Below, piece after piece: positions 1,268-63,849 of a stretch of DNA of 64,000 bases. Each line of letters opens with the position of its first letter. Position 1 is the first letter of the stretch. The position numbers were made by a program, and so were the translations under genes. The notes under the pieces are model-generated. The model worked only from the letters and a program-made list of their open reading frames with translations, was not told the origin of the DNA and searched no databases. The stretch comes from Actinomycetota bacterium. Its GTDB lineage: Bacteria; Actinomycetota; UBA4738; HRBIN12. The DNA lies in contig VAXZ01000117.1 of NCBI GenBank assembly GCA_005885035.1, forward strand, positions 30,992 through 94,991, written 5' to 3'.

Positions 1268-1293
1268 ACGCCGTCTACCGGTGGTCTCTCTCG

Positions 1294-29547: not shown

Positions 29548-30468
29548 TCACGCGAGCTCGAGCTGATACGTGTCGTCGACGACGATGGCGCGCATCCCGA
29601 CCCGCTCGTACAGGCCGACCGCACCGGTCTCGTTCTCGGCGTCGACCCACAGCGTCACCTCGTGGTGCCCACCCCGCGCCATCTCAGCGAAGGTTCGACG
29701 GAGCAAGGCCGTCCCGATCCCGCGGCCGCGCCAGCGCGCTCGTGTCCCGAGCGCCGCGACCTGGGCAACCTCGCCGCCGGTCACCTGACGCAGGAACCCG
29801 ACGATCTGATCTCCTTCGAGCGCGAGCAACCATCGAGAGCGGTCGTCGTCGGCATCGAACCGACGCTGCCGCCACACGTCGAAGGTCTCGGGTGCGAAGC
29901 CGAAGTGGTCGGCGAACGCCTCCTGATCCGCCCGGTAGAGACCGAGCTCGTCCGGGTGCTCGGCCAGCGTCACGAACCGGATGCCGTTGGGCGGTCCTTC
30001 GGTCGGTTCGTCCGTGTCGATCTCTCGATGCATCGTCCACGACGACCGTACGCGCCGGAACCCACGCTGGAGGACGATCTTCCGATGCGCCACGTCGTTG
30101 CGGTAGACGAGGTGGCGCAGGGAGTGCGCTCCCTGTTCGCGAGCGCGCGCGATGAGCCAGTCGACGAGGAAGGGCAGGGCTCCGCCGCGACGATCCGCCG
30201 GAGGGGATGCCACCCACGAGCCGAGCGGCTCGACCCCGGCGTCGTCCTCCCGGAACACCCCCGCGAACGCGACGGGAACGGCGTCGCGCTCGACGATCCG
30301 CCCATCCTCTGCGTCATGGAAGCCCGGGTTCCGCCACACGAAAGGGACGATCTCGTTCCAATCGGCGGTCACGCGGCCGTGATCGGCGAGCTCGTGCGCG
30401 CGGAGCAGCCGGACGAGGGCGGCAACGTCGGCAAGCGACGCGGCCCGGTCGCGATACCCCGGGTCCAC
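29548..30468 (-). CDS. two-domain GNAT N-acetyltransferase (MshD/mycothiol synthase-like)
   Basis: 306 aa with a GTG start. The C-terminal GNAT acetyl-CoA site is RWRGRGIGTALL ... LWVDAENETGAVGLYERVGM. The N-terminal half is a second, degenerate GNAT fold, as in MshD. Confidence 0.75.
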   Translation of the reverse strand: MDPGYRDRAASLADVAALVRLLRAHELADHGRVTADWNEIVPFVWRNPGFHDAEDGRIVERDAVPVAFAGVFREDDAGVEPLGSWVASPPADRRGGALPFLVDWLIARAREQGAHSLRHLVYRNDVAHRKIVLQRGFRRVRSSWTMHREIDTDEPTEGPPNGIRFVTLAEHPDELGLYRADQEAFADHFGFAPETFDVWRQRRFDADDDRSRWLLALEGDQIVGFLRQVTGGEVAQVAALGTRARWRGRGIGTALLRRTFAEMARGGHHEVTLWVDAENETGAVGLYERVGMRAIVVDDTYQLELA

Positions 30469-31361
30469 TACTCCCCGACGGCCTTCTTCCGCGCCGCGGG
30501 CTTCTTCGCTGCGGGCTTCTTCGCGGAGGCCTTCTTCTTGGTCGCCGGCTTCTTCGCTGCCGGCTTGCGCGAGGGAGCGGGCTCGTCCGCCTGCTTCTTG
30601 GCGGCGGCGACCGACGCCTTGAGCGCCTCCATCAGATCGACGACCTTGGCGGTCGGCTCGGGGGCGACGACCTCGATCTCCTGGCCGTTGAGCTTGGCCT
30701 CGACGATCTGGAGCAGGGCCTGGCGGTACTCGTCGGCGTACTCCTCAGGGTTCCACTCCCCCGAGAGCGACTCGATCAGTTGCTTCGCCATCTCCAGCTC
30801 CTGACCACGGATCTTGGCGCTGACGTCGACGCCGCCGAAGTCGGCCTCGCGGATCTCATCGGGCCAGTACATGGTCTCCAGGACGAAGGCCTCATCCTTG
30901 AAGCGGAGCGCCGCGAGGTGCTCCTTGTCCCTGAAGCTGACCTTGGCGACCCCCACTCGACCGTCATCCGCCATGGCCTCGCGGAGCAACGCGTACGCCT
31001 TGGCGCCGGTCTCCTCGGGGACGAGGTAGTAGCTCTTCTTGAACATCACCGGATCGATCTCATCCAGGTCCACGAACCGGTGGATGTCGATAGCCCGGCT
31101 GGACTCGACCGGGATCGCGTTCAGGTCCTCGTCGGTGAGGACCACGTAGCGGTCCTTCTCCACCTCGTAGCCCTTGACGATGTGCTCGAAGGAGACCTCT
31201 TCGCCGTCCTTCTCGCACACGCGCTTGTAGCGGACGCGGCCACCGTCCTCGTCGTGGAGCTGGTTGAACCGCAGGGTCTTCTCTTCGGTCGCCGGGTAGA
31301 CGGCGACCGGGATCGTGACGAGGCCGAACGAGATGGCCCCTTTCCACATGGCTCGTGGCAT
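30468..31361 (-). CDS. ku: non-homologous end-joining protein Ku with lysine-rich C-terminal tail
   Basis: ATG at 31361 is preceded by GGGAGGG. The protein begins MPRAMWKGAISFGLVTIPVAVYPAT... and has a full Ku core. The tail PSRKPAAKKPATKKKASAKKPAAKKPAARKK is encoded by short GC-rich tandem repeats. Confidence 0.9.
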   Translation of the reverse strand: MPRAMWKGAISFGLVTIPVAVYPATEEKTLRFNQLHDEDGGRVRYKRVCEKDGEEVSFEHIVKGYEVEKDRYVVLTDEDLNAIPVESSRAIDIHRFVDLDEIDPVMFKKSYYLVPEETGAKAYALLREAMADDGRVGVAKVSFRDKEHLAALRFKDEAFVLETMYWPDEIREADFGGVDVSAKIRGQELEMAKQLIESLSGEWNPEEYADEYRQALLQIVEAKLNGQEIEVVAPEPTAKVVDLMEALKASVAAAKKQADEPAPSRKPAAKKPATKKKASAKKPAAKKPAARKKAVGE

Positions 31362-31440
31362 GGCTCGCCCTCCCTGAGATGGACCGCACGCAGCGGGAAC
31401 GGTCAGTCTAGCGGCGAAGGCCGACACGGGGGGAGGACGA

Positions 31441-33125: not shown

Positions 33126-35572
33126 ATGCCGAAACGAACGCGTGGGAGCGGCGGCCCCGCGTTCACGGTTGCGCTCCCCCGGCCGCTCGAGACCCGGAAG
33201 GGCGAGCGCGACGCCTGGTGGGTCGAGCTTCCCGAGCGAGAGCTCCGGCTCTCCAACCTCGACAAGGTCTTCTGGCCGGATGAGGGCTACACGAAGGGCG
33301 ACGTGATCTCCTAGTACTTCAACGTCGCGGACCTGCTGCTGCCGCACCTCGAGCGGCGACCGCTCACGATGAAGCGGATGCCCGACGGGATCGAAGGTCC
33401 CGACTTCTACGAGAAATCGGCGCCGTCGCACACGCCGGAGTGGGTCCATCGGTGCACGGTCATGTCGGACGACGCGAAGATGGGGCGGATCGACTACCTC
33501 ACGGTCGACGACCTCGCAACGCTGCTGTTCGTCGCGAACCTCGGGGCGATCGAGATGCATCCCCTCCACTCACGCTGCGAGGACGTCCAGCACCCGGATT
33601 ACCTGTTCTTCGATCTGGACCCGTTCCCCCCGTACGCGTACGACGACGTCCTCAACGTGGCCCGGCACATCGAGGTGCTGCTCGAGCAGCTCGGCATGAC
33701 GGGGTTCCCGAAAACGAGCGGGGCGACCGGGCTGCAGATCTACGTTCCGCTGGAGCAGGGCGCGTACACGTACGCGGAGGCCCGCGCGTTCGTGGGCGCC
33801 TGCGGCCGCCTCGTCAAGGCGGCGGACCCGGACAAGGTGACGATGGCCTGGCGGGTCGCCGACCGTGCCGGGAAGATCTTCATCGACCACAACATGAACC
33901 GCCAAGGGGCGAACATCGCCGCCGCGTACTCGCTGCGGCCGGAGCGCCGCGCGCCGGTCTCGACACCGCTCACCTGGGACGAGGTGCGGGCCGGTGGGTT
34001 CGAGCCGCAAGACTTCCGGATCGACAACGTGTGGGAGCGGTTCGCGACGGTCGGCGACCTCTGGACCGGCGTCCGTACTGGACCGGGAGCGGACCTGGCG
34101 GCGGCCCTCGACGCCCTCGGGGTCGAGGTGGAGGATGACGATCCGGTGCGCGGCTCCCTCCCCCGGACCGCGGCGCCCGACGTCCGCAGCAAGACGTCGG
34201 ATGAGATCGCCCTCGCGTCCAAGGACCCGGCGCTCTTCGAGTACGTCCGGAGGCGCGCGTTCGGACCCGAGGGGACGTCCGAGCCGGCGCCCGGCGACGA
34301 GGCTGGCAGCGGCAACTCGTTCGTGATCCACAAGCACCGCGCGACACGACTGCACTACGACGTCCGGCTGGAACACGACGGAGGGTTGCCCTCGTGGGCG
34401 GTCCCGAAAGGGCTTCCCACCACGAAGGGCGAGAATTCGACGACGGCTGGTACGAGCCGATCGAGTGGACCGACACGAAGGTCTCGTTCCGGCTCCACGG
34501 GCGTCGCTATCCGGGGCTCGAGTTCCACTTCGTGAAGACCCGCACCGATTGGCTCGCGTTCCTCGCCTCGAACCAGACGGCGCCACTGATCGCATCGCCC
34601 CCCCGGTTCACGCCGATGCTGGCGGAGGGCGGCGGTCAGCCTTTCGACGATCCCGCGTGGTGGTTCGAGCCGAAGCTCGACGGGATCCGATGTCTCGCCG
34701 AGATGACGACCGCCGAGACCGTCCTTCGTTCACGGACCGGCCGCGACATGACAGCGCAGTACCCTGAGCTCCACATGGTGCAGGAGCTCGTCGATCAGGT
34801 GAACGCGGTGATCGACGGCGAGATCGTGGCCTTCGACGCGAGCGGTCGGAACTCGTTCGAGACGCTCCAGCAGCGGATGAACCTGGCGAACCCCCGTCAG
34901 ATCGAGCGGATGCGCGCGCAGATCCCGGTGGCGCTCGTCGTGTTCGACCTCCTGTGGTTGGACGGCCGGGACACGACCGGTCTGACGCTCGAGGATCGCC
35001 GGGAGCTGCTGCGCCTCGTCGTGGAGCAAGACGATCGGCTCCAGCTCGTCACCTGGGTCGAGGGCGAGGGGAACGCGTTGGTCGCGGCCGCCCAGACCCA
35101 GGGGCTCGAGGGGGTCGTGGCCAAGCGACTGGGTTCCCCGTACCTACCCGGGCGCCGGACCGACGCGTGGCGCAAGATCAAGCTCCGCGACACCCAGGAC
35201 TGCGTGATCCTCGGGTACACGCCGGGCGAACGTGGTCGCAGCGCCACGTTCGGCGCGGTGCTCGTGGGCGCGTACGACGGTGGCACGCTCCGGTGGATCG
35301 GTCAGGCCGGGAGCGGCTTCACGGATCAGATGCTGACGACGGTGCTCGACCAGCTCCGGCCGTTCGTGCGGTCCACCCCCGCGATCGACGACCCCGAGCT
35401 CGCCCGGGTGAAGGGCGCGGTGTTCGTCGAGCCCGAAGTCGTTTGCGAGATCGAGTACGCGGAGATCACGAAGGGCACGAAGAAGATGCGCGCACCGGTC
35501 TTCAAACGGCTCCGGACGGACAAGCTCCCCGAGGACTGCGTGCTCGAGCCGGTGAGGGAGGTGAGCAGGTAG
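33126..35572 (+). pseudogene. ligD: multidomain DNA ligase D (Pol-PE-Lig order), disrupted by an amber codon and a frameshifting internal deletion
   Basis: Pol domain motifs are present (FFDLDP, SGATGLQIYVPL, IFIDHNMNRQGANIAAAYSLRP). The PE domain begins FVIHKHRATRLHYDVRLE...SWAVPKG. The ligase domain has EPKLDGIR (motif I) through KKMRAPVFKRLRTDK. An in-frame TAG lies at 33312..33314. At about 34431..34440 the frame changes and about 30 aa of the PE core are missing. Confidence 0.85.
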
Positions 35573-35585
35573 GCTCGCGCGGACC

Positions 35586-36587
35586 ATGTGGGGTCGGATC
35601 GTCTTCGGAACGGACGGCTCACCGGCGGCGACGCGCGCTGGCGAGGTCGCGGCGACGATCGCGCGCGCGACGTCGGCGAAGCTGATCGCGACGAGCGGGT
35701 ACCGTGCCTCGTCGGTCGGCGCCGAGGAGCTGCTCGCTGAGGCGCTCGACGTCGCCGAGGCCGCCGGGATGCGGCGGGCTCGGCTCGCGGCGGAGGCGGT
35801 GCCGGGTCGCGCCGGCGACGTCCTCGTCGCCGTCGCCGAAGCACAGGATGCCGGGCTGATCGTGGTCGCCCGCGGCGAGGATCGGTCGCTCTCCGATCTG
35901 TCGCGGTGGCTCACGCACCACGCGCCGTGCGACCTGTTGATCGTGGCATCGGGCTCGCGGGATCCCCACGCACCGTACGGTCGGATCGTGATCGCGAGCG
36001 ACGGGAGCGCGACCGCGGATCGGGCGGCGCGCAAAGGGTTCGACCTGGCCCGTGAGGTGCTCGCCAGCGTGACGCTCGTGTTCATCGGACATCCGAAGAC
36101 CGGCGAGCTGGTGATGGGAGACACGATCGATGTCTACGGCCGAGGGATCGAGACCGAGGTACGCCTGCTCGAGGGCGACCCGGCGCATCAGATCATCTCG
36201 ACCGCCGATGACGTCGACGCCGAGCTCGTCGTCGTCGGCAACCGCGGACTGCAGGGAGCGAAGGGGTTCCTGCTCGGCTCGGTCCCGGAGAAGGTCGTCG
36301 AGGCGACCCACCGGGACGTCCTCGTCTGTCGGACCGTGATGCAGATCGCCTCCGAGCTGGGGCCTGGTGAGGGCGGCGTGATCGAGCGTCGCGGGGAGAA
36401 GCTGGCGATCTCCGTCGACGAGACGGGCGCGCAGCATCTGCTGTCCGCCCGGTGCACGCACCTGGGATGCACGGTCGCGTGGAACCCGGCCGAGCACACC
36501 TTCGATTGCCCCTGTCATGGATCGCGGTTCTCGCCGACCGGGGAGGTCGTCAACGGACCGGCCGCGAGACCGCTGCCGCCCGCGTGA
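35586..36587 (+). CDS. tandem universal stress protein (USP) domains fused to a C-terminal Rieske [2Fe-2S] domain
   Basis: 333 aa with two UspA-like modules (RIVFGTDGS...; RIVIASDGS...[23 protein letters not shown]). A Rieske motif follows: CTHLGC...(17 aa)...CPCHGS. Confidence 0.8.
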
Positions 36588-42163: not shown

Positions 42164-42829
42164 TCATCTCCGCGACCCGTCGATCGCCGCGATGGTCGCG
42201 TCGTCACCGCTTTCCGCCGCCATGTCGGCTATCGACCGGCCCTCGTCGTCGATCGCTCCCGGGTCGGCGCCGTGCGTGAGCAAGAACTCGACCGTGCGCA
42301 CGTCGCCGTTGTGCGCCGCCGAGTGCAAGGGCGTCCACCCGCCCCGCTGTACAGCGTCCGGGTCCGCTCCGGCCTCGAGGAGAAGGTCAACGGTGGCCGC
42401 GTGCCCAGCGCTCGCCGCCGAGCTCAGCGGTGTTCCCGTCATCCATCCCGTGCCGTGGGCGTCCGGGTCGGCGCCGCGCGCGAGCAGCAGTCGAACGGCG
42501 TCGTCCTGCCCGAAGAACGCGGCGAGGTGCAACGCCGTGAACCCGTCGCCGCTCCGGCGGTCCGTCAAGCCGGGATCGGCCTCGAGGAGCACGGCGAGCC
42601 GGTCGAGATCGCCGAACGTCGCCGCCTCGAAGACATCGAGGGCCGCGACCCGGGCCCTGACCGCCTCGGCGAGCGCGCGATCGAGGCGGTACCGGGCGCG
42701 GAGCAAGGCCGACACGCCCTCGTGATCGCGAGCCATCGCGAGGGAAGGATCGACGTCCAGCATGGCGCCGACGCGATCCACGTCTCCGGCGTCGATCGCC
42801 GCGAACAGATCGTCGGATGCGCTTGCCAT
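42164..42829 (-). CDS. ankyrin repeat protein
   Basis: 221 aa with at least four ANK repeats (G.TALHLAAFFGQDDAVRLLLARGADPD; TPLSSAASAGHAATVDLLLEAGADPD; WTPLHSAAHNGDVRTVEFLLTHGADP). Confidence 0.85.
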   Translation of the reverse strand: MASASDDLFAAIDAGDVDRVGAMLDVDPSLAMARDHEGVSALLRARYRLDRALAEAVRARVAALDVFEAATFGDLDRLAVLLEADPGLTDRRSGDGFTALHLAAFFGQDDAVRLLLARGADPDAHGTGWMTGTPLSSAASAGHAATVDLLLEAGADPDAVQRGGWTPLHSAAHNGDVRTVEFLLTHGADPGAIDDEGRSIADMAAESGDDATIAAIDGSRR

Positions 42830-52699: not shown

Positions 52700-53494
52700 A
52701 TGACGATTCCGAATCCGTACCTCGGAGAGGTCGTCGGCACAGCGACGCTGATCCTGTTGGGCGACGGCGTCGTTGCGGGCGTCTTGCTGAACAAGTCCAA
52801 GGCCCAGAACTCGGGGTGGATCGTGATCACCTGGGCGTGGGGGTTGGCGGTCTTCATGGGCGTCATCACGAGTCTCGCCGTCACCGGTGGCCAGGCGCAC
52901 CTCAACCCTGCGGTCACCATCGGCCTCTGGGCCGCGGGCTTCTTGAAGGACTGGACCACGACGCAGATCCTGCTCACGATCTTCTTCGAGTTCGTCGGGG
53001 CGATGCTCGGGGCGCTCCTGGTGTGGCTGTCGTACCTGCCGCACTGGCCCGAGACGGAGGACCCGGGCCTGAAGCTCGCGGTCTTCTGCACGGGACCGGC
53101 GATCCGTAACACCGGTGCCAACCTCATCACCGAGATCGTCGGCACCTTCATGCTGGTCTTCGGCGTCGTCGCCATCGCGATCAAGTTCTCGGGCGGCTTG
53201 CTGATCAATGTCCAGGGCATGACCGGCTCTATGACGATCGGTGGCGTCCTCTCGACGGGAGCGTTCCCGGTGGCGCTCCTCGTCCTCGTGATCGGGTTGG
53301 CCCTGGGTGGCCCGACCGGGTACGCGATCAACCCGGCTCGCGACCTCGGTCCGCGGATCATGCACTTCGTGCTTCCGATCGCGGGCAAGGGCGGCTCGGA
53401 CTGGGCCTACGCGTGGATCCCCGTGGTCGGACCGGTCCTGGGGGGCATCGTGGGCGCGGTCGCGGCTAAGGCGCTCTTCGATCTTCATCCGTAG
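52700..53494 (+). CDS. glpF: glycerol uptake facilitator / aquaglyceroporin (MIP family)
   Basis: 264 aa with two NPA boxes (HLNPAVT; AINPARD) and six TM helices. Confidence 0.9.
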   Translation: MTIPNPYLGEVVGTATLILLGDGVVAGVLLNKSKAQNSGWIVITWAWGLAVFMGVITSLAVTGGQAHLNPAVTIGLWAAGFLKDWTTTQILLTIFFEFVGAMLGALLVWLSYLPHWPETEDPGLKLAVFCTGPAIRNTGANLITEIVGTFMLVFGVVAIAIKFSGGLLINVQGMTGSMTIGGVLSTGAFPVALLVLVIGLALGGPTGYAINPARDLGPRIMHFVLPIAGKGGSDWAYAWIPVVGPVLGGIVGAVAAKALFDLHP

Positions 53495-53550: not shown

Positions 53551-54552
53551 ATGAAGAAGCTGATCAACGATCCGGAGAACGTGGTCCGCGAGGAACTGAG
53601 CGGGATCACGCGGGCGCACGGCGATCTCGTCGAGGTCCACATCGATCCGCACTACATCGTTCGGAAGGACGCACCCGTCCAGGGCAAGGTCGCCCTGGTA
53701 TCGGGCGGCGGGTCGGGACACGAGCCGATGCATGGGGGATTCGTCGGCATGGGCATGCTCGACGCGGCATGTCCCGGCGAAGTGTTCACCTCGCCAACGC
53801 CCGATCAGATGGAAGCCGCGACGAAGGCGGTCGATGGCGGTGCCGGCGTCGTGCACATCGTCAAGAACTACACGGGCGACGTCATGAACTTCGAGATGGC
53901 GGCCGAGCTCGTCCGATCCGAGGGATCCGAGGTGGAGTCCGTGCTCGTCGACGATGACGTGGCCGTGCAGGACTCGCTCTACACCGCGGGTCGCCGGGGC
54001 GTCGGCGCGACGGTGCTGATGGAGAAGATCGCGGGCGCCGCGGCCGAGCAACGGCGGCCGTTGAAGGAGGTCGCCGACCTCTGCCGGAAGGTGAACGACA
54101 ACGCACGTTCGATGGGGATGGCCCTGACGTCGTGCACGGTCCCGGCGGCTGGGAAACCGACGTTCGAGCTGGGCGACGACGAGATGGAGATCGGGATCGG
54201 CATCCACGGTGAACCGGGTCGCCAGCGCATGAAGGCGGCGCCGGCCCACGACATCGTCGAGATGATGGCGACGCCCATCGTCGACGACCTTCCCTTCAAG
54301 AGCGGCGACCAGGTCCTCGCGTTCGTGAACGGGATGGGCGGCACCCCGCTGATCGAGCTCTACATCGTCTTCAACGAGCTGGCGTCGTTCCTCGACGGGC
54401 GGGGCATCGGCATCGGTCGCAACCTGATCGGCCCCTACATCACCTCGCTCGAGATGCAGGGCTGCTCGATCACGCTCCTGAAGCTCGATGACGAGCTGAC
54501 GGAGCTGTGGGATGCACCGGTCAAGACGCCGGGGCTACGCTGGGGGGTCTGA
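53551..54552 (+). CDS. dhaK: dihydroxyacetone kinase subunit DhaK
   Basis: 333 aa. The motifs [13 protein letters not shown] and GIGIHGEPG form the Dak1 domain. Confidence 0.92.
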
Positions 54553-54613
54553 AGAGGGAGCAGGAGGGAGGCGGCGACCTCGGGCACTGCCTCCTTCCCG
54601 TCTGGAGGTGGTC

Positions 54614-55255
54614 GTGACCGTCACGCACGACGACGTGGTGCGATGGATCCGGGCGTTCGCGGATGCGATCGCAGAGAACAAGGACTCCTTGACGGATCTC
54701 GACTCCGCGATCGGAGACGCCGACCACGGCATCAACATGCACCGCGGGATGACCGCGGTCCTGGGGAAGCTGGACGGTGACGGATCCGCCGACATCGGCA
54801 CGCTCCTGAAGACGGTCGGCATGACCCTCGTCTCGAGCGTCGGTGGCGCCGGCGGTCCGTTGTACGGGACGCTCTTCCTCCGCCTGGGGGCCGCGGCCGC
54901 CGGGAAGGAGGAGCTCACCGACGAGGACTGGGTGGCGATGGTGACGGCGGGAGTCGAAGGGGTGCAGTCGCGAGGGAAGGCGGAGCCCGAGGACAAGACC
55001 ATGGTGGATGCCCTCATCCCCGCGCGGGACGCGCTCGCGACCGCCGTGGCCGCGGGAGAGCCCTTCGCGGGCGCGCTGCGCTCAGCGGCCGCCGCCGCGG
55101 AGGAAGGGATGAAAGCGACGATCCCGCTCGTTGCGCGCAAGGGCCGCGCGAGCTATCTCGGCGAAAGGAGCGCCGGCCATCAGGACCCTGGGGCCACCTC
55201 GTCGTGGCTCCTGATGAGAACCGCAGCGGAGACCTTCGGCGATCACACGGAGTGA
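54614..55255 (+). CDS. dhaL: dihydroxyacetone kinase subunit DhaL
   Basis: GTG at 54614 lies 5 nt after GGAGG. The Dak2 domain motifs are LTDLDSAIGDADHGINMHRG, VGGAGGPLYG, EDKTMVDAL and ARKGRASYLG. Confidence 0.88.
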   Translation: MTVTHDDVVRWIRAFADAIAENKDSLTDLDSAIGDADHGINMHRGMTAVLGKLDGDGSADIGTLLKTVGMTLVSSVGGAGGPLYGTLFLRLGAAAAGKEELTDEDWVAMVTAGVEGVQSRGKAEPEDKTMVDALIPARDALATAVAAGEPFAGALRSAAAAAEEGMKATIPLVARKGRASYLGERSAGHQDPGATSSWLLMRTAAETFGDHTE

Positions 55256-55267
55256 AGGGAGGACACG

Positions 55268-56645
55268 ATGGCGGACTACGCAGCAGCCATCGACCAGGGA
55301 ACGACCAGCACGCGCTTCATGATCTTCGACCACGCCGGGCAGGTCGTGGCCGTGGATCAGAGGGAGCACGAGCAGATCTTCCCGAAGCCGGGCTGGGTCG
55401 AACACGACCCGATGGAGATCATCGAGCGCACCCATGAGGTCGTCACGGGGGCGCTGAAGAAGGCCGGGATCTCGGCGAGCGACCTCGCGGCCGTCGGGGT
55501 GACGAACCAGCGCGAGACCACCGTCGTCTGGGAGCGATCGAGCGACGTACTTCTCCGGGCCGAAGATCCGGTGGATCCTCGACAACGTCGAGGGTGCCCG
55601 GGCGCGTGCCGAGGCCGGGGAGCTGCTCTTCGGCAACATCGACACCTGGGTGATCTGGAACATCACCGGCGGTCCTGATGGCGGAGCGCACGTCACGGAC
55701 GTCACGAACGCCAGCCGCACGATGCTGATGGACCTGAAGACCCTCGACTGGGACGACGCGATCCTGGATGCGATCGGGGTCCCGCGCGCCGTCCTGCCCG
55801 AGATCCGGTCGTCCAGCCAGACGTACGGGGAAGCGACGGGCGATCTGGCCGGCATCCCGGTGGCCGGTGACCTGGGCGACCAGCAGGCCGCCCTCTTCGG
55901 CCAGACCTGCTTCGCGGTCGGCGAGGCGAAGAACACCTACGGAACCGGCAACTTCCTGTTGCTCAACACGGGTACCAAGGCCGTGCCCTCGAAGAGCGGG
56001 CTGATCACGGGACTCGGCTACAAGATCGGGGATCAGCCCGCGGTGTACATGCTCGAGGGTTCGATCGCCATCACCGGGGCGCTGGTGCAGTGGCTCCGAG
56101 ACAACATCGGGCTGATCTCCTCCTCGGGCGAAGTCGAAGATCTGGCCAAGACGGTCGAGGACAACGGCGGCGTGTACTTCGTGCCCGCGTTCTCGGGTCT
56201 CTTCGCGCCGTACTGGCGGGGCGAAGCGCGCGGCGTGATCGCAGGACTCACCCGGTACGTGAACAAGGGTCACATCGCACGCGCGGTCCTCGAGGCGACC
56301 GCATGGCAGACGAAAGAGGTCGTCGAGGCCATGAACGCCGACTCCGGGGTCGCGCTCACGTCGCTCAAGGTCGACGGCGGCATGGTCTACAACGAAACCC
56401 TGATGCAGTTCCAGGCCGACGTGCTGGACGTCCCGGTGATCCGTCCGACCGTTGCGGAGACCACCTCGCTCGGTGCGGCGTACGCCGCGGGGCTGGCGGT
56501 CGGGTTCTGGAAGGAGGTCGAAGACCTCCGCGCCAACTGGGGCAAGGACAAGGAGTGGCAGCCCCGGATGGACGCGGCCGAGCGCGACAAGGAGTACGCG
56601 CTCTGGAAGAAGGCCGTGACGCGGACGTTCGACTGGGTGGAGTGA
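55268..56645 (+). pseudogene. glpK: glycerol kinase GlpK, internal deletion plus frameshift
   Basis: The N-terminal part reads [15 protein letters not shown]...PGWVEHDP...[14 protein letters not shown]. At 55538..55541 (tcga) the frame shifts. The rest ([16 protein letters not shown]...[13 protein letters not shown]...[10 protein letters not shown]...NTYGTGNF...VDGG...) continues in another frame to 56645. About 40 aa between the VVWE and YFSG blocks are missing, judged against E. coli GlpK as I recall it. Confidence 0.85.
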
Positions 56646-56699: not shown

Positions 56700-56912
56700 A
56701 TGGAAGACAGGGAGCACGGCGACTTCGCCGAGGGACAGGAGGCGAACAAGGAGCACGAGAAGGAGGAAGGCTCGTTCGCGGAGGGGCAGGAAGAGGAGGA
56801 GCACCCCAGCGGCGGGGAGCACGGCGACTTCGCCGAGAGACAGGAGACCGAGGAGGACGAGCGCGACGAAGGCTCGTTCGCGGAGGGTCAGGAAGAGGAG
56901 CACGAGCCTTAG
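56700..56912 (+). CDS. small, highly acidic tandem-repeat protein (4x [E/D]xG[D/S]FAE[G/R]QE)
   Basis: ORF 56685..56912. The second ATG, at 56700, lies 5 nt after GGAGGAGG. The peptide is MEDREHGDFAEGQEANKEHEKEEGSFAEGQEEEEHPSGGEHGDFAERQETEEDERDEGSFAEGQEEEHEP. The DNA shows a roughly 105-nt two-fold duplication. No family recognised. Confidence 0.55.
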   Translation: MEDREHGDFAEGQEANKEHEKEEGSFAEGQEEEEHPSGGEHGDFAERQETEEDERDEGSFAEGQEEEHEP

Positions 56913-56949: not shown

Positions 56950-58158
56950 ATGACGCGATCCGCACCGCGGGCATCCCGCGACGCTCCCCACGTCCTCATC
57001 GTCGGTGGTGGCGGCACCGGGGGAGCGCTCGCCCACGACCTGACGTTGCGCGGCGTCCGGATCACGCTGGTCGAGCGGGGCGAATTCACCTCCGGGACCA
57101 CGGGTCGTCACCACGGACTCCTCCACTCCGGCGCTCGCTACGCGGTGAGCGACCGCGAGTCCGCGATCGAATGCATCGAGGAGAACGCGATCCTGCGCTC
57201 GATCTGCCCGGGATCGTTCGAAGAGAACGATGGGCTGTTCGTCGCCATCACCGACGAAGACATGGACTACTACGACGACTTCGTCGAAGGGTGCAAGGCA
57301 TGCGGGATCCCGATCGAGGAGCTCGCCCCGCAGGAGGCCCTCCGGATGGAGCCGCTGCTCAACCCGGGGCTGAAAGCTGCGGTCCGGGTCCCCGACGCAA
57401 CGATGGACGCGATGCGGATGCCGCTGCGGTTCTTCGCCACCGCCAAACACCGCGGCGCGACGCTCTACAACTTCATGGAGGTGCTCGACCTCGTCATCGA
57501 CGGCGGTGCCGTCACGGGCGCGACGGTCCGTGACCTCGTGACCGGCTCCGAAGGCGACCTCCACGCGGATCTCGTGGTGAACGCGACGGGTCCCTGGTCG
57601 GAGAAGATCGCCCGCATGGCGGGGGTCGACGTCCCGATCAGTCCATCGCCGGGCGTGATGCTCGCCCTGCGAGGTCGCCTCTGCAACATGGTGATCAACC
57701 GGATGCATCGATCCGGTGACGGTGACATCGTCGTCCCGCAACGAGGCCTGTCGGTCGTCGGGACCAGCTCGTGGACGGTCGAGGACCCGGACGAACTCGA
57801 CGTCCCGGAGGATCACGTGGCCCGGATGCGGGAGGAAGGATCGAAGCTGATCCCGGCCATCGCCCAGGCTGTGTCGCGGGCCGCGTGGTCGGCCGCTCGC
57901 CCATTGATCGGCGCGAAGGACGCGGACTCCGGGCGCGAGCTCTCCAGGACGTTCAAGACGATCGATCACGTCGAGGACGGCGTCGAGGGGTTCGTGACGA
58001 TCACCGGCGGCAAGGCGACGACCCTCCGCGGGATGGCCGAGCTATGCGGCGACGTGATCTGCCGGAAGCTCGGCATCGACCGCCCCTGCAGCACGCGGAG
58101 CGTCACCACGCTCCCCCACACGGCGTTCTACGCGGAGACCGAGCGGAGACTGGCGTGA
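56950..58158 (+). CDS. glpA: GlpA-type FAD-dependent glycerol-3-phosphate dehydrogenase flavoprotein, lacking the C-terminal BFD [2Fe-2S] domain
   Basis: 402 aa. VLIVGGGGTGGALAHDL...TSGTTGRHHGLLHSGARYAVSDRESAIECIEEN...ITGGKATTLRGMAELCGDVICRKLGIDRPCST is colinear with E. coli GlpA residues about 1-400, from memory. The protein ends about 25 aa after the RPC(S/T)T block. Confidence 0.85.
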   Translation: MTRSAPRASRDAPHVLIVGGGGTGGALAHDLTLRGVRITLVERGEFTSGTTGRHHGLLHSGARYAVSDRESAIECIEENAILRSICPGSFEENDGLFVAITDEDMDYYDDFVEGCKACGIPIEELAPQEALRMEPLLNPGLKAAVRVPDATMDAMRMPLRFFATAKHRGATLYNFMEVLDLVIDGGAVTGATVRDLVTGSEGDLHADLVVNATGPWSEKIARMAGVDVPISPSPGVMLALRGRLCNMVINRMHRSGDGDIVVPQRGLSVVGTSSWTVEDPDELDVPEDHVARMREEGSKLIPAIAQAVSRAAWSAARPLIGAKDADSGRELSRTFKTIDHVEDGVEGFVTITGGKATTLRGMAELCGDVICRKLGIDRPCSTRSVTTLPHTAFYAETERRLA

Positions 58159-58889
58159 GCGCGGCCGACCCCCTCCCGACGACCCGGAGGTTCCGCGTCT
58201 ACCGCTACAAGCGGGGGGACCCGGGATGGCGATTCGACCCCTTCGAGGTACCGGTCGGCCCCCGGACGACGGTGCTCGATGCGCTGCGGTGGATCCAGCT
58301 GCACCGCGACCGGACGCTCGCGCTCCGGCATTCGTGCTTCCACGCCTCGTGCGGCACGTGCGGGATGCAGGTGAACGGTCGTGAGGCCCTCGCGTGCGTC
58401 ACGCTCGCCGACCCCCTCGGGTCGACGATCACCGTGGAACCGCTCGCCAACATCCCCGTCCTCACCGACCTCGTCGTGGACATGGGTCAGGTGTTCGCAC
58501 GGTTCCCGGACGAGATCGGCACGGTCCGGATGAGCGAGAAGCCCTCACGTGCCTCCCCGCCCGACGGGATCGATACGTACGAACGGTTCGAGGATTGCAT
58601 CGAATGCGGGCTCTGCCTGTCGGCGTGCCCCGTCTCCGCCACCTCCGACGCGTACGTGGGGCCGGCAGCACTGGCGGCGGCTCAGCGTCTGCTCGAGGAA
58701 CCGCGCGGCGTGGATCCGGAACGGATCTTGGACTGGGCGGGCGATCCGGCGGGCGCCTGGCGCTGTCATGTCGCGTTCGAATGCACCGAGGCCTGTCCCT
58801 CCAACGTCCGCCCCGCCGAGCGGATCATGGCGCTCCGCGGCGCGCTCGCGGCCGGCCGCCGGACCGTGGCGACGGTGACCCCGGGATGA
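58155..58889 (+). CDS. succinate dehydrogenase/fumarate reductase-type iron-sulfur subunit (SdhB/FrdB-like)
   Basis: 244 aa. The GTG start overlaps the glpA-like stop (GTGA). The 2Fe-2S motif is SCFHASCGTCG...C, the 4Fe-4S motif is CIECGLCLSACP and the 3Fe-4S motif is CHVAFECTEACP. Confidence 0.85.
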   Translation: MSAADPLPTTRRFRVYRYKRGDPGWRFDPFEVPVGPRTTVLDALRWIQLHRDRTLALRHSCFHASCGTCGMQVNGREALACVTLADPLGSTITVEPLANIPVLTDLVVDMGQVFARFPDEIGTVRMSEKPSRASPPDGIDTYERFEDCIECGLCLSACPVSATSDAYVGPAALAAAQRLLEEPRGVDPERILDWAGDPAGAWRCHVAFECTEACPSNVRPAERIMALRGALAAGRRTVATVTPG

Positions 58890-59323
58890 GCGGTCAGGAG
58901 CTCCCGGGAACGGAGCGCCGAGATGACCAGGGACCGGTGTTGCGCAAGGGCGTGGGGATCCCGACGTCCGGCTGGTTCGATCCGCGCGGACGGGCGCTCG
59001 GTGGGTTCGCGTTCGCGGTCAACCGGGTGACGGGGCTCGGGCTCGTCGCGTACCTGTACCTGCACCTCGCTGTGTTGTCGATGCTGCTTCGCGGCGGATC
59101 GGCGTGGAGCGGGTTCCTCCGGCTCGCGACCAGCTGGCTCTTCCTGTCGCTCGACGTCCTGCTGATCTTCGGGATCCTGTATCACGGTCTGAACGGGATC
59201 CGCGTCGCGCTCGTCGGAAGCGGCATCGTCGCTGACCGGCAGAAGGCGCTGTGGTGGGCGCTCGGCGTGATCGGCACGCTCGCACTGGCGTTCAGCGCGA
59301 TCCATATCTACGGGAGCCGCTGA
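58886..59323 (+). CDS. SdhC-like membrane anchor / cytochrome b subunit (3 TM)
   Basis: The ATG overlaps the upstream stop (ATGA). There are three hydrophobic helices. SdhC-like motifs are present (NRVTGLGLVAYLYLHL; YHGLNGIRVAL). Confidence 0.7.
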   Translation: MSGQELPGTERRDDQGPVLRKGVGIPTSGWFDPRGRALGGFAFAVNRVTGLGLVAYLYLHLAVLSMLLRGGSAWSGFLRLATSWLFLSLDVLLIFGILYHGLNGIRVALVGSGIVADRQKALWWALGVIGTLALAFSAIHIYGSR

Positions 59324-59324
59324 G

Positions 59325-59723
59325 ATGGCCACCATCCGCACGCGTGGGACCGCTCGGCGACGCTCGGCGCGTGCGCCGAGATCCGCCGGCGAGTGGCGGA
59401 TCACGACGCTCACCGGCCTCGGGCTCCTGGTCCTCCTCGCTGTCCACATGGTTGCGAACCATTTCGTGGTGAAGTCGATCGGCGGTCTCCGCGACTATCG
59501 GCAGGTGCTCGCGTACATCGCGAACCCGGTGATCTTCACGATCGAGTCCCTGTTCCTGCTGTTCGTCACGGTCCACGCGATGCTGGGCCTCCGGAGCGTC
59601 CTGCTCGACCTCGATCCCTCACCGCGTCTGCATCGATGGATCGACCGCGGGCTCGCCGTGCTCGGACTGGTGACGCTCGCGTACGGATACTTCCTGATCG
59701 GGACGCTCGCGTCCCGGGCCTGA
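59325..59723 (+). CDS. SdhD-like membrane anchor subunit (3 TM)
   Basis: 132 aa, starting 1 nt after the SdhC-like stop. Three helices with conserved-looking His residues are present (LLAVHMVANH; FVTVHAMLGL). Confidence 0.65.
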   Translation: MATIRTRGTARRRSARAPRSAGEWRITTLTGLGLLVLLAVHMVANHFVVKSIGGLRDYRQVLAYIANPVIFTIESLFLLFVTVHAMLGLRSVLLDLDPSPRLHRWIDRGLAVLGLVTLAYGYFLIGTLASRA

Positions 59724-59736
59724 GGATCTGAGAGCC

Positions 59737-62208
59737 GTGGTCGGACTCGTCCTGGTCTCGCACAGCCACGAGGTGGCCGAGGGCGTCGCGGCGCTCGCGC
59801 GTCAGATGGGAGGTGCGGACCTGCCGGTCGCGACGGCCGGCGGCCTGGAGGCGACGGGCGAGGAACACCCTGTCGGGACCGACGCAGCCCGGATCGTCGC
59901 TGCGCTGGAGCAGGCGTGGTCTGAGGACGGCGTCCTCGTGCTGATGGATCTGGGGAGCGCGGTCCTGTCCGCGGAGATGGCGCTCGAGTTCCTCGATCCG
60001 GATCGTCGCGGGAAGGTGCGACTCTCGGGCGCGCCGTTCGTCGAAGGCGCGGTTTCGGCCGCCGTCGCCGCGAAGCTCGGCCGCCCGTTGGACGACGTGG
60101 CCGAGGAAGCGCTCGGCGGACTGGCGGGCAAGGAAGCGCACCTCGGCGCGGGTCCGGCTGCAGCGGACGAGTCCGGCTCGCTGGCCGAGCAACCCGCCGG
60201 GCCCGAGGTGAGGCTCCCGATCGTGATCGACCTCCCCCACGGGCTCCATGCCCGTCCTGCCGCGAGGCTGGTGCAGACCGCCGGCGCCTTCGATGCCGAC
60301 ATCCGCGTGACGAACGTCACGGCCGGCCGAGGTCCCGTGAGCGCGCGCAGCCTCAACGCGGTCGCCACGCTCGGGGTCACGGTCGGGCAGAGGATCGAGG
60401 TCGTCGCCCGGGGGCCGCAGGCGACGCTCGCGATCGATGCCGTCCGGGCGCTCGCGGATCGCCGCTTCGACGAGGCCCCGGAGGACCTGGCGATCACCGA
60501 ACCGACGCCACCCGAGAGCGCCCCGGCCGTCGAGGGAGCGATCGTCGGCATCCCGGCCTCCCCCGGGATAGCCGTCGGACCCGTGCGTCATCTCCACGTT
60601 CCCGAGCTCGCCGTCCCGGATGGGGCCGCCGGCACGCCGGAGGAGGAGCGCACGCGTCTGGACACGGCGATCGCCGCGGTTCGCGCCGACATCACCCACC
60701 AGCGGGAGGCCGCGATCATGCGCGTCGGCGCGGGCGAGGCGGCGATCTTCGAGGCTCACCTGCTCTTCCTGCAGGATGAGGCGCTCCTCGGCCCTGCGCG
60801 GGACGGCATCCCGGATCGCGGCGCGGCGGCAGCGTGGAGAGATGCCGTCACGGAGCTGGCGACCATCTGGGACGAGCTGGACGATCCCTACCTGCGGGAG
60901 CGAGCCGGCGATCTCAGGAGCGTCGGGCGGCAGGTCCTCGCGAAACTCCTCGGCGTCGAGGCGCCGCACGGCCGGCTCCCCGCCCCCGGGATCCTGGCGA
61001 TCGGCGACCTCGAACCGGCCGACACGATCGCGCTGGACCCCGCCTCCTGTCTCGGCATCGCCGTGGCGCATGGCGGTCCGACCTCGCACGCGGCGGTGCT
61101 GGCCCGCGCGCTGGGGATCCCGGCCGTGGTCGGTCTCGGCGACCGGATCACCGAGCTCGACGAGGAGGTCACGATCGGGCTCGACGGAAGGACTGGGGTC
61201 GTTCACATCGACCCCCCCTCGTCCACGATCGCCGACCTGGAGGCCGAGCGAGCGGAGCAGCTCGACCGCGAACGCTCGGCACGGGCTCGCGCGAGCGAGC
61301 CCGCCGTGATGAAGGACGGACGGCACGTTTCGATCATGGCCAACGTCGGCGGCTCCTCCGACGTCGCGGCCGCACTCGCCGCGGGGTGTGACGGCGTGGG
61401 CTTGTTCCGGAGCGAGTTCCTGTTCCTCGGGCGCGACACGATGCCGAGCGAAGCCGAACAGGAGGAGGCGTATCGAGCTGCGGCCGTCGCACTCAACGGT
61501 CGTCCGCTCACGGTGCGGACGCTCGACGCGGGCGCCGACAAGCCGATCCCCTACCTCGAGCTGCGACCCGAGGCGAACCCGTTCCTCGGCGTGCGAGGGT
61601 TCCGGTTGACGTCTGCGCGGCCCGAGATCTTGCTCGCTCAGCTGCGCGCGCTCGTGCGCGTCGCCGCCGATCACCCGGTCCGGATCATGTTCCCGATGGT
61701 GGCGACGCTCGAGGAGCTCCGGGAGGGGCTCGCGACGGTCGGCGAGGTGGCCGCGAAGTCCGGGACGGCTCCCCCTGAGGTCGGGGTCATGATCGAGATC
61801 CCCGCAGCGGCCCTCGCCGCCCCACATCTGGCACGCGTCGCCGCCTTCTTCTCGGTCGGGACGAACGACCTTACGCAATACACCCTCGCCGCGGATCGCG
61901 GCAACGAGCACCTGGGTGACCTCGCCAACGCCCTCCACCCGAGCGTGCTCCGGTTGATCGCGATGACCGCGGAGGCCGGAGTCGCATCGGGGATCCCGAC
62001 GGCGGTGTGCGGTGAGCTGGCGGCCGACCCTGCCGCGACGTCGTTGCTGCTCGGTCTCGGGGTGGAAGAGCTCTCGGTGAGCCCGCCTGCCATCCCCGCG
62101 GTCAAGGACGCCGTTCGCGTGGTCGACATGGACGGCGCGAACGCGCTCGCGGCGAAGGCGCTCGCCTGCGCGACGGCAGCCGAGGTGCGCGAGCTCCTGA
62201 CGGCCTGA
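59737..62208 (+). CDS. dhaM: multiphosphoryl transfer protein: DhaM (EIIA-Man-like) + HPr + full-length PTS Enzyme I
   Basis: 823 aa. The N-terminus GLVLVSHSHEVAEGV is the DhaM phospho-His region. The HPr His motif is LPHGLHARPAARLV. The EI motifs are GGPTSHAAVLARALGIPAVVG, LFRSEFLF, GTNDLTQY and AVCGELA. Confidence 0.88.
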   Translation: MVGLVLVSHSHEVAEGVAALARQMGGADLPVATAGGLEATGEEHPVGTDAARIVAALEQAWSEDGVLVLMDLGSAVLSAEMALEFLDPDRRGKVRLSGAPFVEGAVSAAVAAKLGRPLDDVAEEALGGLAGKEAHLGAGPAAADESGSLAEQPAGPEVRLPIVIDLPHGLHARPAARLVQTAGAFDADIRVTNVTAGRGPVSARSLNAVATLGVTVGQRIEVVARGPQATLAIDAVRALADRRFDEAPEDLAITEPTPPESAPAVEGAIVGIPASPGIAVGPVRHLHVPELAVPDGAAGTPEEERTRLDTAIAAVRADITHQREAAIMRVGAGEAAIFEAHLLFLQDEALLGPARDGIPDRGAAAAWRDAVTELATIWDELDDPYLRERAGDLRSVGRQVLAKLLGVEAPHGRLPAPGILAIGDLEPADTIALDPASCLGIAVAHGGPTSHAAVLARALGIPAVVGLGDRITELDEEVTIGLDGRTGVVHIDPPSSTIADLEAERAEQLDRERSARARASEPAVMKDGRHVSIMANVGGSSDVAAALAAGCDGVGLFRSEFLFLGRDTMPSEAEQEEAYRAAAVALNGRPLTVRTLDAGADKPIPYLELRPEANPFLGVRGFRLTSARPEILLAQLRALVRVAADHPVRIMFPMVATLEELREGLATVGEVAAKSGTAPPEVGVMIEIPAAALAAPHLARVAAFFSVGTNDLTQYTLAADRGNEHLGDLANALHPSVLRLIAMTAEAGVASGIPTAVCGELAADPAATSLLLGLGVEELSVSPPAIPAVKDAVRVVDMDGANALAAKALACATAAEVRELLTA

Positions 62209-62218
62209 ACGGCGCGCG

Positions 62219-62809
62219 TTGGTACGCTTCAAACGTGTGAGCAGCGCCGACGAACGAGCTGGACGATTCCTCGAGGGCGTCACGTGGTTGCGCGTCATCC
62301 TCACGCCGATCGTGATGGCCCTGGTGCTCCACGGCGGAGACCGGGCCGACGCGACCGCCGCCGGGCTGTTCGCGCTCGCGGCCATCACCGACTTCGTCGA
62401 CGGGCGACTCGCGCGCCGATGGAAGCGGACCTCGCAGCTCGGCGCCTTCCTCGACACCACCGCGGACAAGGTGCTCGTGACGGGCGTCCTGATCGCGCTC
62501 GTCGCGGTCGGCCGGGCATCGGCCTGGGTGGGCTTCGTGATCATCGCGCGCGAGATCGTCGTGTTCGGTCTCAAGGGGGTCGCGAGCTCGGCGGAGGGCT
62601 CGATCGTGAACCCGTCGCGGCTCGGCAAGGCGAAGGCGAACCTCCAGTTCCTCGCGATCTTCGTCGCGATCTGGCGTCCCGACATCCTGGTAGGGGGACG
62701 CTTCGTGGACGAGTGGCTGATGTGGGTGGCTGCGATCATCACCGTCTGGTCCGGCATCGATTACGTCGGCCGGTACGCCGGCGCGTTCACGCGTGTGCGT
62801 GAACGATGA
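62219..62809 (+). CDS. CDP-alcohol phosphatidyltransferase family protein (PgsA-like)
   Basis: The motif is D-x2-DG-x2-AR-x8-G-x3-D-x3-D (ITDFVDGRLARRWKRTSQLGAFLDTTADK). There are several TM helices. The start is TTG 62219 or GTG 62237. Confidence 0.8.
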   Translation: MVRFKRVSSADERAGRFLEGVTWLRVILTPIVMALVLHGGDRADATAAGLFALAAITDFVDGRLARRWKRTSQLGAFLDTTADKVLVTGVLIALVAVGRASAWVGFVIIAREIVVFGLKGVASSAEGSIVNPSRLGKAKANLQFLAIFVAIWRPDILVGGRFVDEWLMWVAAIITVWSGIDYVGRYAGAFTRVRER

Positions 62810-63849
62810 CGGCGTTCGTTACCGGAGGAAGTGGGTTCGTCGGCGGGGCCGTGATCCGGGCGCTGATCGCGCAGGGCGAGCCCGTCCGGGCCCTCGCGCG
62901 CAGCCCCGTCGCGAAGTCGACGGTCATCGATCTGGGAGCCGAGCCCGTCGCCGGTGACCTGATCGATCGATCGGCGCTCGCGGACGCGATGAACGGGTGC
63001 GACGTCGTGTTCCACGTGGCGGGCGTGAACCGCATGTGCCCGCGCGACCCGACCGAGCTCGACGCGATCAACATCGCCGGCGCCGTTACCGCCGTGCACG
63101 CAGCGGCCGACGCCCGGATCGCCCGGCTCGTGCTGACCTCGTCTTCCGCCGCGATCGGCGAGCGGCCCGGCACGCTCGGCACCGAGGACTCGGTGCACCG
63201 AGGACGCTTCCTCTCGCGCTACGAGCGGTCGAAGTACCTCGGCGAGCGGCAGGCGCGTGCGGCGGGCCGGGAGCGAGGGATCGAGGTCGTCACGGTCAAT
63301 CCGTCGTCGGTCCAGGGGCCCGGTCGCACGACGGGGTCCGCGAAGCTGCTGCTGTACGCGGCGCGGGCACGAACCGCGGCCTTGCTCGACACGTCCTTCT
63401 CGATCGTGGACGTCGACGACTGCGCGATCGGACACCTGCTGGCGGCCCGCAACGGGGTCGCCGATCGCCGCTACCTGTTGTCGGGAGCCACGCTCACGAT
63501 GCGCTCGGCTGCCTCGCTGCTTCGGCGGCAGATCGGCCGGCCGCAGCGTGTCGTCTGGATCCCGCGGAGCCTCGTGCGCGCGGTCACCCCGCTCACCGGG
63601 TTCGTCACGCGTTTCCGCGAGGATCCAGCGGTCTGCCCGGCGACGATCCGCTCGCTCCTCCACGGGCACCGGTACGACGGCTCCCGCGCGACGCGCGAGC
63701 TGGGCCTCGTGTACCGATCGCTCGAGGAAACGCTCGAGCGCGTACTCACTTGGTACCGGACGCACGGGATGCTCCCGAAAGCCCACGGCGTAGGATTCCG
63801 GAGCGTCGAACGTCCGGCGGGGCCCGTCGATGGGAGGAACCGAGGATGA
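62806..63849 (+). CDS. NAD-dependent epimerase/dehydratase (extended SDR) family protein
   Basis: 347 aa with a Rossmann motif ([13 protein letters not shown]) and a catalytic YxxxK (YERSK). The start overlaps the upstream stop. Confidence 0.8.

Follow-up and report, generated by a model that had tools for sequence, protein, structure and literature searches.

How does a glycerol-3-phosphate dehydrogenase of the GlpA type hand on its electrons when it has lost the domain that passes them on and has neither GlpB nor GlpC beside it? The question is raised by four consecutive genes, here called g1 to g4 (Table 1), in a 64,000-nucleotide stretch of contig VAXZ01000117.1 (assembly GCA_005885035.1) from a soil Actinomycetota bacterium, which was analysed as a whole and is referred to below as the window. 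A truncated GlpA-type flavoprotein is encoded by g1, an SdhB-like iron-sulfur subunit by g2, and SdhC- and SdhD-like membrane anchors by g3 and g4. An initial annotation of the window took this for an electron wire and anchor in the style of complex II that had been recruited by a GlpA-type dehydrogenase. The synteny and coupling of the genes, the co-divergence of the first two, fusions of SdhB with SdhC or SdhCD in relatives, a separate SdhB-like clade and an intact set of cofactor ligands all support that proposal. The four genes probably encode one membrane-bound respiratory enzyme, a predicted glycerol-3-phosphate:menaquinone oxidoreductase.

The cluster is a coupled operon. Genes g1 and g2 overlap in the sequence GTGA (58155-58158) and g2 and g3 in ATGA (58886-58889), while g3 and g4 meet as TGA-G-ATG, with the single base 59324 between them. 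These positions had been given in the initial annotation, and they agree exactly with the open reading frames (ORFs) and with a separate metagenome scaffold that carries an identical g2 protein, on which the genes were called independently at 402, 244, 145, 132 and 823 aa. The window is high in GC (0.64-0.73), and the genes between 52.7 and 63.8 kb form a co-directional array with short gaps; between 51.5 and 64 kb no terminator-like sites were found on the plus strand and the scan returned no promoter-like sites.

The product of g1 belongs to the DAO family (Pfam DAO, 1e-47) and matches the GlpA model TIGR03377 (7.8e-133), but only along the first 378 of the 530 profile positions. Other equivalogs match at 1e-25 or weaker, with weak matches to ThiO, SoxB and LhgO among them. 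Against E. coli GlpA (taken from NC_000913.3) its identity is 43% over residues 30-400 (E 1e-96), and the alignment of the two runs on until about 20 aa after the RPC(S/T)T block. There g1 and four distant relatives stop, 15-25 residues past the block, whereas E. coli GlpA continues for about 140 residues beyond it, through a Fer2_BFD domain at 432-484. In Pfam searches Fer2_BFD (PF04324) was absent from g1 and from four other truncated GlpA-type proteins. None of the 120 closest homologues of g1 is shorter than 388 or longer than 411 aa, which shows that its start at 56950 and its short C-terminal end are real. E. coli GlpA and five truncated GlpA-type proteins share three motifs without variation, GRHHGLLHSGARY, RPL and GGKxTxxRxMAE. 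The Arg, Lys and His motifs of the GlpA/GlpD active-site region are the same in g1 as in E. coli GlpA, and it is on this invariance that the argument for a glycerol-3-phosphate site rests. The PDB holds no structure of GlpA; the nearest solved protein to g1 is the GlpD-like 3da1 (9e-30).

The second gene supplies the wire. Its product contains Fer2_3 (3e-25) and Fer4_8 domains in Pfam and scores 172.4 bits against TIGR00384 (cutoff 88), and the solved proteins closest to it are E. coli FrdB (5e-35) and the SdhB subunit of Mycobacterium smegmatis Sdh2 (5e-34). The patterns for a 2Fe-2S, a 4Fe-4S and a 3Fe-4S cluster (CxxxxCxxC...C, CxxCxxCxxxCP and CxxxxxCxxxCP) are complete, as had been noted from the letters. 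All 11 cluster Cys are present, align with those of E. coli FrdB and SdhB, and are 99-100% conserved over 84 relatives, in which His205 is conserved at 96%. With GlpC, g2 has a weak partial match to the ferredoxin part only (36 bits against a cutoff of 278), and BLASTP found no GlpB-like match. When 39 window proteins were scanned against Pfam or NCBIfam, no sdhA-, glpB- or glpC-like gene was found, either in the cluster or elsewhere among them; these 39 are most of the likely genes of the whole window, including every one of SdhA length, rather than every ORF.

Three hydrophobic segments were found in each of g3 and g4, which match PF01127 (Sdh_cyt, cutoff 25.8 bits) at 32.1 bits (1.4e-7) and 43.3 bits (4.5e-11), respectively. 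The best solved match of the g3 family profile is the SdhC subunit of M. smegmatis Sdh2 (6lum_C, 9e-16), and the g4 family profile matches 6lum_C (1.4e-10) and 6lum_D (1.9e-4). In that enzyme the axial ligands are HisD107 and HisC87 for heme bP and HisD65 and HisC47 for heme bD (PMC7447783). Counted along the printed alignments to 6LUM, g3 His60 corresponds to HisC47, g3 His100 to HisC87, g4 His41 to HisD65 and g4 His84 to HisD107. All four are 99-100% conserved (77-80 relatives), and the two of g4 are conserved at 100% over 77. E. coli SdhC His84 aligns with g3 His100 and E. coli SdhD His71 with g4 His84; the monoheme E. coli SdhCD has this helix-2 His pair in common with g3 and g4 and is without the His of helix 1. 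The anchor therefore looks diheme and type-A-like, with helices 1 and 2 of both subunits each providing a candidate axial His. Such an anchor would fit a menaquinone organism, the hemes themselves being predicted from their ligands.

The arrangement is not peculiar to this contig. A search with g2 against 185,579 species genomes gave 168 loci, of which the best 80 (52-92% identity) were kept; these belong to uncultured metagenome-assembled genomes (MAGs) of Actinomycetota, including Solirubrobacterales, and of Chloroflexota, with one labelled Planctomycetaceae. Wherever the flank suffices, a g1 homologue stands immediately upstream and g3 and g4 homologues downstream, and in most of the 80 the cluster is also preceded by dhaK and glpK and followed by dhaM. 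The commonest junction is a 4-nt overlap, found between g1 and g2 in 31 loci and between g2 and g3 in 61. Since the order recurs in all of the 80 best loci that have sufficient flank, the adjacency of g1 to g4 is far beyond chance.

It also reaches well beyond these loci. A g2 search of 1.8 billion representatives returned 158 cluster representatives with E <=1e-30, and gene context was examined for seven of them and for two proteins from a profile of deeper representatives. In 9/9 of these distant contexts the SdhB-like gene follows a DAO gene of 386-415 aa. The DAO gene is a full-length g1 homologue at 42-65% identity in all seven loci that were compared by tblastn (L081, L083-L086, L088 and L089; the comparison left out P0261 and L092), and its identity falls in step with that of g2 (39-52%). 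Two representatives at 38-41% identity to g2 follow a true SdhA (FAD_binding_2 and Succ_DH_flav_C). A neighbor-joining tree was built from 128 sequences. Eight of these are known to have a truncated GlpA-type neighbour, and they fall into one clade of 55-60 tips; in 59 of 60 bootstrap replicates this clade excludes E. coli SdhB and the two SdhA-linked representatives. Only three of the deep profile matches carry a taxon label: a Chloroflexota MAG, an unclassified 'bacterium', and a cluster that takes its name from a deltaproteobacterial symbiont of Olavius.

The distant relatives differ in what follows the flavoprotein, and SdhC and SdhD encoded by separate genes are only one of the forms that the membrane part takes. 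A 373-aa SdhB-SdhC fusion (L081 6001-7122) lies beside a GlpA-like gene, and a 571-aa SdhB-SdhCD fusion (L083 5001-6716, a Bacillota MAG) comes directly after glpK and a GlpA-like gene. Protein P0261 is a 496-aa fusion of SdhB with a CCG domain, encoded beside electron-transfer flavoprotein genes and a second Fer4-CCG protein. Four further loci have the GlpA-like/SdhB-like pair and no anchor gene (L086 3748-5738, L088 3240-5720, L089 3539-5699 and L092 1806-3685); the pair in L086 follows a gene of the glycerol-kinase family (FGGY), those in L088 and L089, of the cluster named after the deltaproteobacterial symbiont, adjoin an M20 peptidase gene, and that in L092 adjoins oxaloacetate decarboxylase genes. 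From these varied fusions and from the pairs that lack an anchor it follows that the membrane or acceptor module is interchangeable within the family. Five loci seemed to hold natural fusions of GlpA with SdhB, in the form of ORFs of 624-787 aa; these were rejected as an artefact of extending the ORF through a stop inside the tblastn match; the real fusions beside the flavoprotein gene are SdhB-SdhC and SdhB-SdhCD, and none is GlpA-SdhB.

The surroundings of the cluster in the window are those of a glycerol locus, in agreement with the initial annotation. Pfam and NCBIfam identify a MIP channel, DhaK, DhaL and GlpK upstream and a DhaM-HPr-EI protein downstream (Table 1). The channel scores under the curated cutoffs (146 bits against 400 for Gla, 130 against 171 for TIGR00861) and is therefore assigned to the MIP family by E-value only. 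The true start of dhaL probably lies downstream of 54512. The gene for the DhaM fusion starts 13 nt past g4 and encodes a protein in which EIIA-man and HPr are joined to a complete Enzyme I (with its N-terminal, mobile and phosphoenolpyruvate-binding domains) and which is above cutoff for both TIGR02364 and TIGR01417; the fusion is conserved downstream of g1-g4 in most Actinomycetota loci. Next comes pgsA, 10 nt after dhaM, whose product consumes glycerol-3-phosphate, and then a gene for an HpnA-like epimerase that overlaps pgsA by 4 nt; both are possibly on the g1-g4 transcript. No glycerol dehydrogenase gene was found in the Pfam and NCBIfam scans of the window proteins.

Table 1. The g1-g4 cluster, its neighbours and other features of the window (nucleotide positions within the window).
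Feature	Position	Strand	Details
g1, truncated GlpA-type FAD flavoprotein	56950-58158	+	402 aa; predicted catalytic glycerol-3-phosphate dehydrogenase subunit
g2, SdhB-like Fe-S subunit	58155-58889	+	244 aa; ligands for 2Fe-2S, 4Fe-4S and 3Fe-4S
g3, SdhC-like 3-helix membrane anchor	58886-59323	+	145 aa; His60 and His100 candidate heme ligands; Arg47 invariant
g4, SdhD-like 3-helix membrane anchor	59325-59723	+	132 aa; His41 and His84 candidate heme ligands; His46 and Asp95 invariant
Acidic His/Glu-rich repeat protein	56700-56912	+	70 aa; tandem repeat and translation; possible lineage-specific fifth cluster gene
glpK (glycerol kinase), frameshifted	55268-56645	+	119-nt deletion, junction between 55544 and 55545
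dhaL, dihydroxyacetone kinase subunit L	54512-55255	+	TIGR02365, 243 bits (cutoff 138), ORF residues 43-238
dhaK, dihydroxyacetone kinase subunit K	53551-54552	+	TIGR02363, 494 bits (cutoff 406); upstream in most related loci
MIP-family glycerol-facilitator-like channel	52712-53494	+	Gla 1.1e-42; TIGR00861 MIP 1e-37
DhaM-HPr-EI fusion	59737-62208	+	823 aa; phosphoryl donor for DhaKL; EIIA-man, PTS-HPr and PEP-utilisers N/mobile/C domains
pgsA	62219-62809	+	CDP-diacylglycerol--glycerol-3-phosphate phosphatidyltransferase
HpnA-like NAD-dependent epimerase	62806-63849	+	
Ku	30468-31427	-	
Split LigD, first ORF	33369-34535	+	primase-polymerase and phosphoesterase N-terminus
Split LigD, second ORF	34394-35572	+	ATP-dependent ligase
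Usp-Rieske protein	35586-36587	+	Usp domains and C-terminal Rieske [2Fe-2S] domain
Ankyrin-repeat protein	42164-42829	-	221 aa; Ank 1.5e-28
tRNA-Met	1293-1367		

Taken as one enzyme, the four proteins would work as follows. The GlpA-type subunit would oxidise sn-glycerol-3-phosphate (G3P) to dihydroxyacetone phosphate (DHAP) at its flavin adenine dinucleotide (FAD). Having lost the BFD [2Fe-2S] domain and being without GlpB and GlpC, g1 would dock on the SdhB-like g2, the 2Fe-2S domain of which would replace the lost cluster in trans. Electrons would then pass from FAD through the 2Fe-2S, 4Fe-4S and 3Fe-4S clusters to the type-A-like SdhC/SdhD anchor with its two putative bis-His b hemes, where menaquinone would be reduced. 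We infer G3P as the substrate because of the GlpA match, the invariant motifs and the neighbouring genes for the MIP channel, DhaK, DhaL, glpK and DhaM-HPr-EI, with pgsA further downstream; the physical complex, menaquinone as the acceptor, the number of bound hemes and the quinone site used are likewise predictions.

Several points weigh against this assignment. On textbook potentials the transfer of electrons from G3P to menaquinone is exergonic, and the diheme transmembrane wire is therefore without an obvious role. In Sdh2-type enzymes the two-heme path allows succinate oxidation, an uphill reaction, to be driven by the membrane potential; here it may simply have been inherited from a duplicated type-A sdhBCD. 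The residues which we take to form the quinone site of the E. coli succinate:quinone oxidoreductase are partly kept, the equivalents of SdhC Arg31, SdhB His207 and SdhD Asp82 being present and those of SdhB Trp164, SdhC Ser27 and SdhD Tyr83 absent. Both GlpA equivalog models score g1 under their cutoffs (TIGR03377 443.8 bits against 552.8; NF008313 378.7 against 425), in the case of TIGR03377 because the C-terminal third is missing. A monomer model of g1, for which 24 homologues with identities of 77% or more were used, reached a mean pLDDT of 57.6 and a pTM of 0.62, left the substrate domain unmodelled and was of too low a quality for use. In the window glpK, which would be expected to provide G3P, carries a frameshift. 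Some relatives of the g1-g2 pair are found outside glycerol loci and lack an anchor gene, and members of the family may therefore differ in substrate and acceptor. Finally, the support for a complex is drawn from sequence and gene order.

Among other explanations, the one that fares best keeps the complex and changes its substrate, which would be glycerol (giving dihydroxyacetone for DhaKLM), some 2-hydroxy acid or a compound derived from an amino acid. We consider this unlikely. The cluster is indeed bracketed by dhaK/dhaL and dhaM, with no glycerol dehydrogenase gene found and with glpK disrupted, but most related loci, the Bacillota MAG and another distant locus among them, have an undamaged glpK next to the cluster. 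The DAO superfamily is diverse in its substrates, as the weak ThiO, SoxB and LhgO matches recall, and some relatives of the pair stand beside M20 peptidase or oxaloacetate decarboxylase genes and not beside glycerol genes. Against this, the Thermofilum-type GlpA is reported to retain the G3P site (PMC11962113), and GlpA is by far the best match of g1, at 1e-133 against the 1e-25 level or weaker for every other equivalog. The identity of g1 to E. coli GlpA and the invariance of the Arg, Lys and His motifs of the active-site region point the same way.

An enzyme of this composition could also run in the reverse direction, as a menaquinol:DHAP reductase that supplies G3P for phospholipids, and we hold this to be very improbable. 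Bacteria normally reduce DHAP to G3P with the NAD(P)H-dependent GpsA, and the transfer of electrons from menaquinol (about -74 mV) to the DHAP/G3P couple (about -190 mV) would be uphill by textbook values. A G3P consumer, pgsA, does lie in the same array shortly after dhaM, relatives in the complex II family are reversible, and coupling to the proton-motive force is possible for diheme anchors (PMC7447783), but the conserved neighbours of the cluster (channel, glpK and dhaKLM) are catabolic. Least credible of all is a coincidental adjacency of a stand-alone GlpD-like g1 to ordinary succinate dehydrogenase subunits whose SdhA is encoded elsewhere: although g2-g4 match succinate dehydrogenase and fumarate reductase families and an sdhA absent from the 39 scanned proteins could lie elsewhere, this orphan-sdhBCD scenario is not tenable and is close to refuted, given that the order is kept, mostly with 4-nt overlaps, in the best 80 loci of two phyla wherever the flank suffices, that it persists to about 40% identity with g1 and g2 diverging in parallel, that g2-type proteins stand apart from SdhA-linked SdhB in all but one of the bootstrap replicates, and that the domain lost from g1 is exactly the one that passes electrons on.

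Beyond the predicted G3P:menaquinone oxidoreductase itself, a broader suggestion can be put forward tentatively. The truncated GlpA and the SdhB-like protein might be the core of a distinct and old branch of complex-II-like enzymes, in which a three-cluster SdhB wire serves a flavoprotein of the DAAO fold in place of SdhA and membrane modules are interchangeable; in the Actinomycetota lineage this core may be joined by a diheme wire, which could tie the exergonic oxidation of G3P to the membrane potential in an unexpected way, and by the acidic protein encoded before g1, which could be a fifth subunit or assembly factor. We regard this as possible, though somewhat less than an even chance. The pair is present in Actinomycetota and Chloroflexota, in more distant form in the MAG labelled Bacillota and the deltaproteobacterial-symbiont cluster, and, by synteny, in Thermofilum.

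Two neighbours of the cluster are peculiar in themselves. In glpK the reading switches between the frames phased on 55268 and 55269, and DNA alignment with the closest related loci (L002 and L003) places a 119-nt gap there that shifts the frame. The deletion removes a conserved GKPIHNAxVWQDTRT...GLPIAT stretch, while the neighbouring g1-g4 are intact, and glpK is here a true pseudogene unless the lesion comes from a fault in the assembly. The 70-aa acidic protein is built from the repeats HGDFAEGQE and EGSFAEGQE, encoded by a 102-nt tandem repeat in the DNA, and has 25 Glu and 5 His among its 70 residues, with a net charge of about -25. Among the Actinomycetota loci fetched, 37 keep it in this place between glpK and g1, whereas it was not found at this position in the Chloroflexota loci fetched; neither Pfam nor NCBIfam gave a match. 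Its role could be that of an additional subunit, of an assembly factor or of a protein that binds metal.

Other features of the window lie apart from the glycerol locus. A set of genes for non-homologous end joining comprises Ku and a split LigD; as called, the second LigD ORF begins about 140 nt before the first one ends, which points to a frameshift or a wrongly placed start. One protein joins Usp domains to a Rieske [2Fe-2S] domain, an unusual pairing, and another consists of ankyrin repeats, here in a bacterial genome. Rfam and tRNA scans returned only the tRNA-Met listed in Table 1.

If the favoured reading is true, bacteria have a third route, beside GlpABC and GlpD, by which electrons from G3P enter the quinone pool, and this route appears common in abundant uncultured soil Actinomycetota and Chloroflexota. 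The SdhB/SdhCD module would not be tied to SdhA or FrdA and could serve a flavoprotein of unrelated fold, a re-use that bears on the evolution of modular respiratory enzymes. In databases g2-type genes are at present named 'succinate dehydrogenase/fumarate reductase iron-sulfur subunit' and g1-type genes 'FAD-dependent oxidoreductase', and metabolic reconstructions from MAGs therefore miscount both succinate dehydrogenase and G3P dehydrogenase. A diheme anchor on an exergonic reaction would also be a clean test case for the purpose of the distal heme. The system is a worthwhile and readily testable target because it is so widespread in bacteria, because its anchors are modular and because of the puzzle set by the two hemes.

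The closest precedent is archaeal. Schmerling et al. (bioRxiv 2024; Commun Biol 2025, PMC11962113) drew a 'GlpA-SdhBCD (T. pendens)' complex from gene order in their Fig. 9, and predicted by synteny that Thermofilum pendens Tpen_1127 and the genes downstream of it form a membrane-anchored G3P dehydrogenase. The initial annotation knew of no characterised example of the architecture. It is biochemically uncharacterised and has not been described for Bacteria, and a full-text literature search for it in bacteria or in classifications of complex II gave nothing beyond Schmerling et al.; as an architecture, however, it is already documented from Thermofilum gene order, and the window holds a bacterial member of the predicted kind. 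Compared by gene order and published description, the two have in common a glpA-like gene followed by sdhB-, sdhC- and sdhD-like genes, a flavoprotein with almost no C-terminal extension past the DAAO fold (for g1 from its alignment, for T. pendens from the paper) and a setting of glycerol catabolism. Unlike the archaeal system, the type in the window occurs in Actinomycetota and Chloroflexota, with distant versions in a MAG labelled Bacillota and in the deltaproteobacterial-symbiont cluster, and has variant membrane modules. The same authors stated that bacterial glpA co-occurs consistently with glpB and glpC (PMC11962113), a generalisation that the present loci correct.

With E. coli GlpABC the cluster shares a clear GlpA homologue as its catalytic subunit and the expected reaction, G3P to DHAP with electrons going to menaquinone. 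It is nevertheless not GlpABC, because the BFD [2Fe-2S] domain of GlpA, GlpB, and a GlpC with CCG domains were each looked for and are absent, and the electron path would instead lead through an SdhB-type three-cluster subunit and integral anchors predicted to bind heme. The second comparison is with M. smegmatis Sdh2 (type A diheme, PDB 6LUM), in which both anchors have their best match among solved structures, and g2 nearly its best, and with which g1-g4 share all four axial His, all cluster Cys, two 3-helix anchor subunits, the phylum and likely the quinone. Here too there are differences: g1 has the DAO/GlpA fold and not that of SdhA/FrdA (FAD_binding_2 and Succ_DH_flav_C), g2 lies in a clade apart from SdhA-linked SdhB, and the substrate couple would be much more reducing, so that the energetic reason for two hemes in Sdh2 is not transferable. 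Lacking SdhA and with g2 in its separate clade, g1-g4 are not complex II proper, and they would not be expected to oxidise succinate or reduce fumarate, as they have no active site of the SdhA type. The cluster thus resembles a splice of GlpABC and complex II, as far as its genes can tell. A characterised parallel is the GlpA-CoxG G3P dehydrogenase of Sulfolobus acidocaldarius (Saci_2032/2031), which was studied experimentally (PMC11962113). In both, a GlpA-related flavoprotein without the BFD domain and without GlpBC is attached to the membrane by a recruited, unrelated partner, as predicted here. The CoxG-like anchor, however, has neither Fe-S clusters nor hemes and its enzyme reduces quinone directly, whereas in g1-g4 a full complex-II wire is predicted to lie between the flavoprotein and the quinone.

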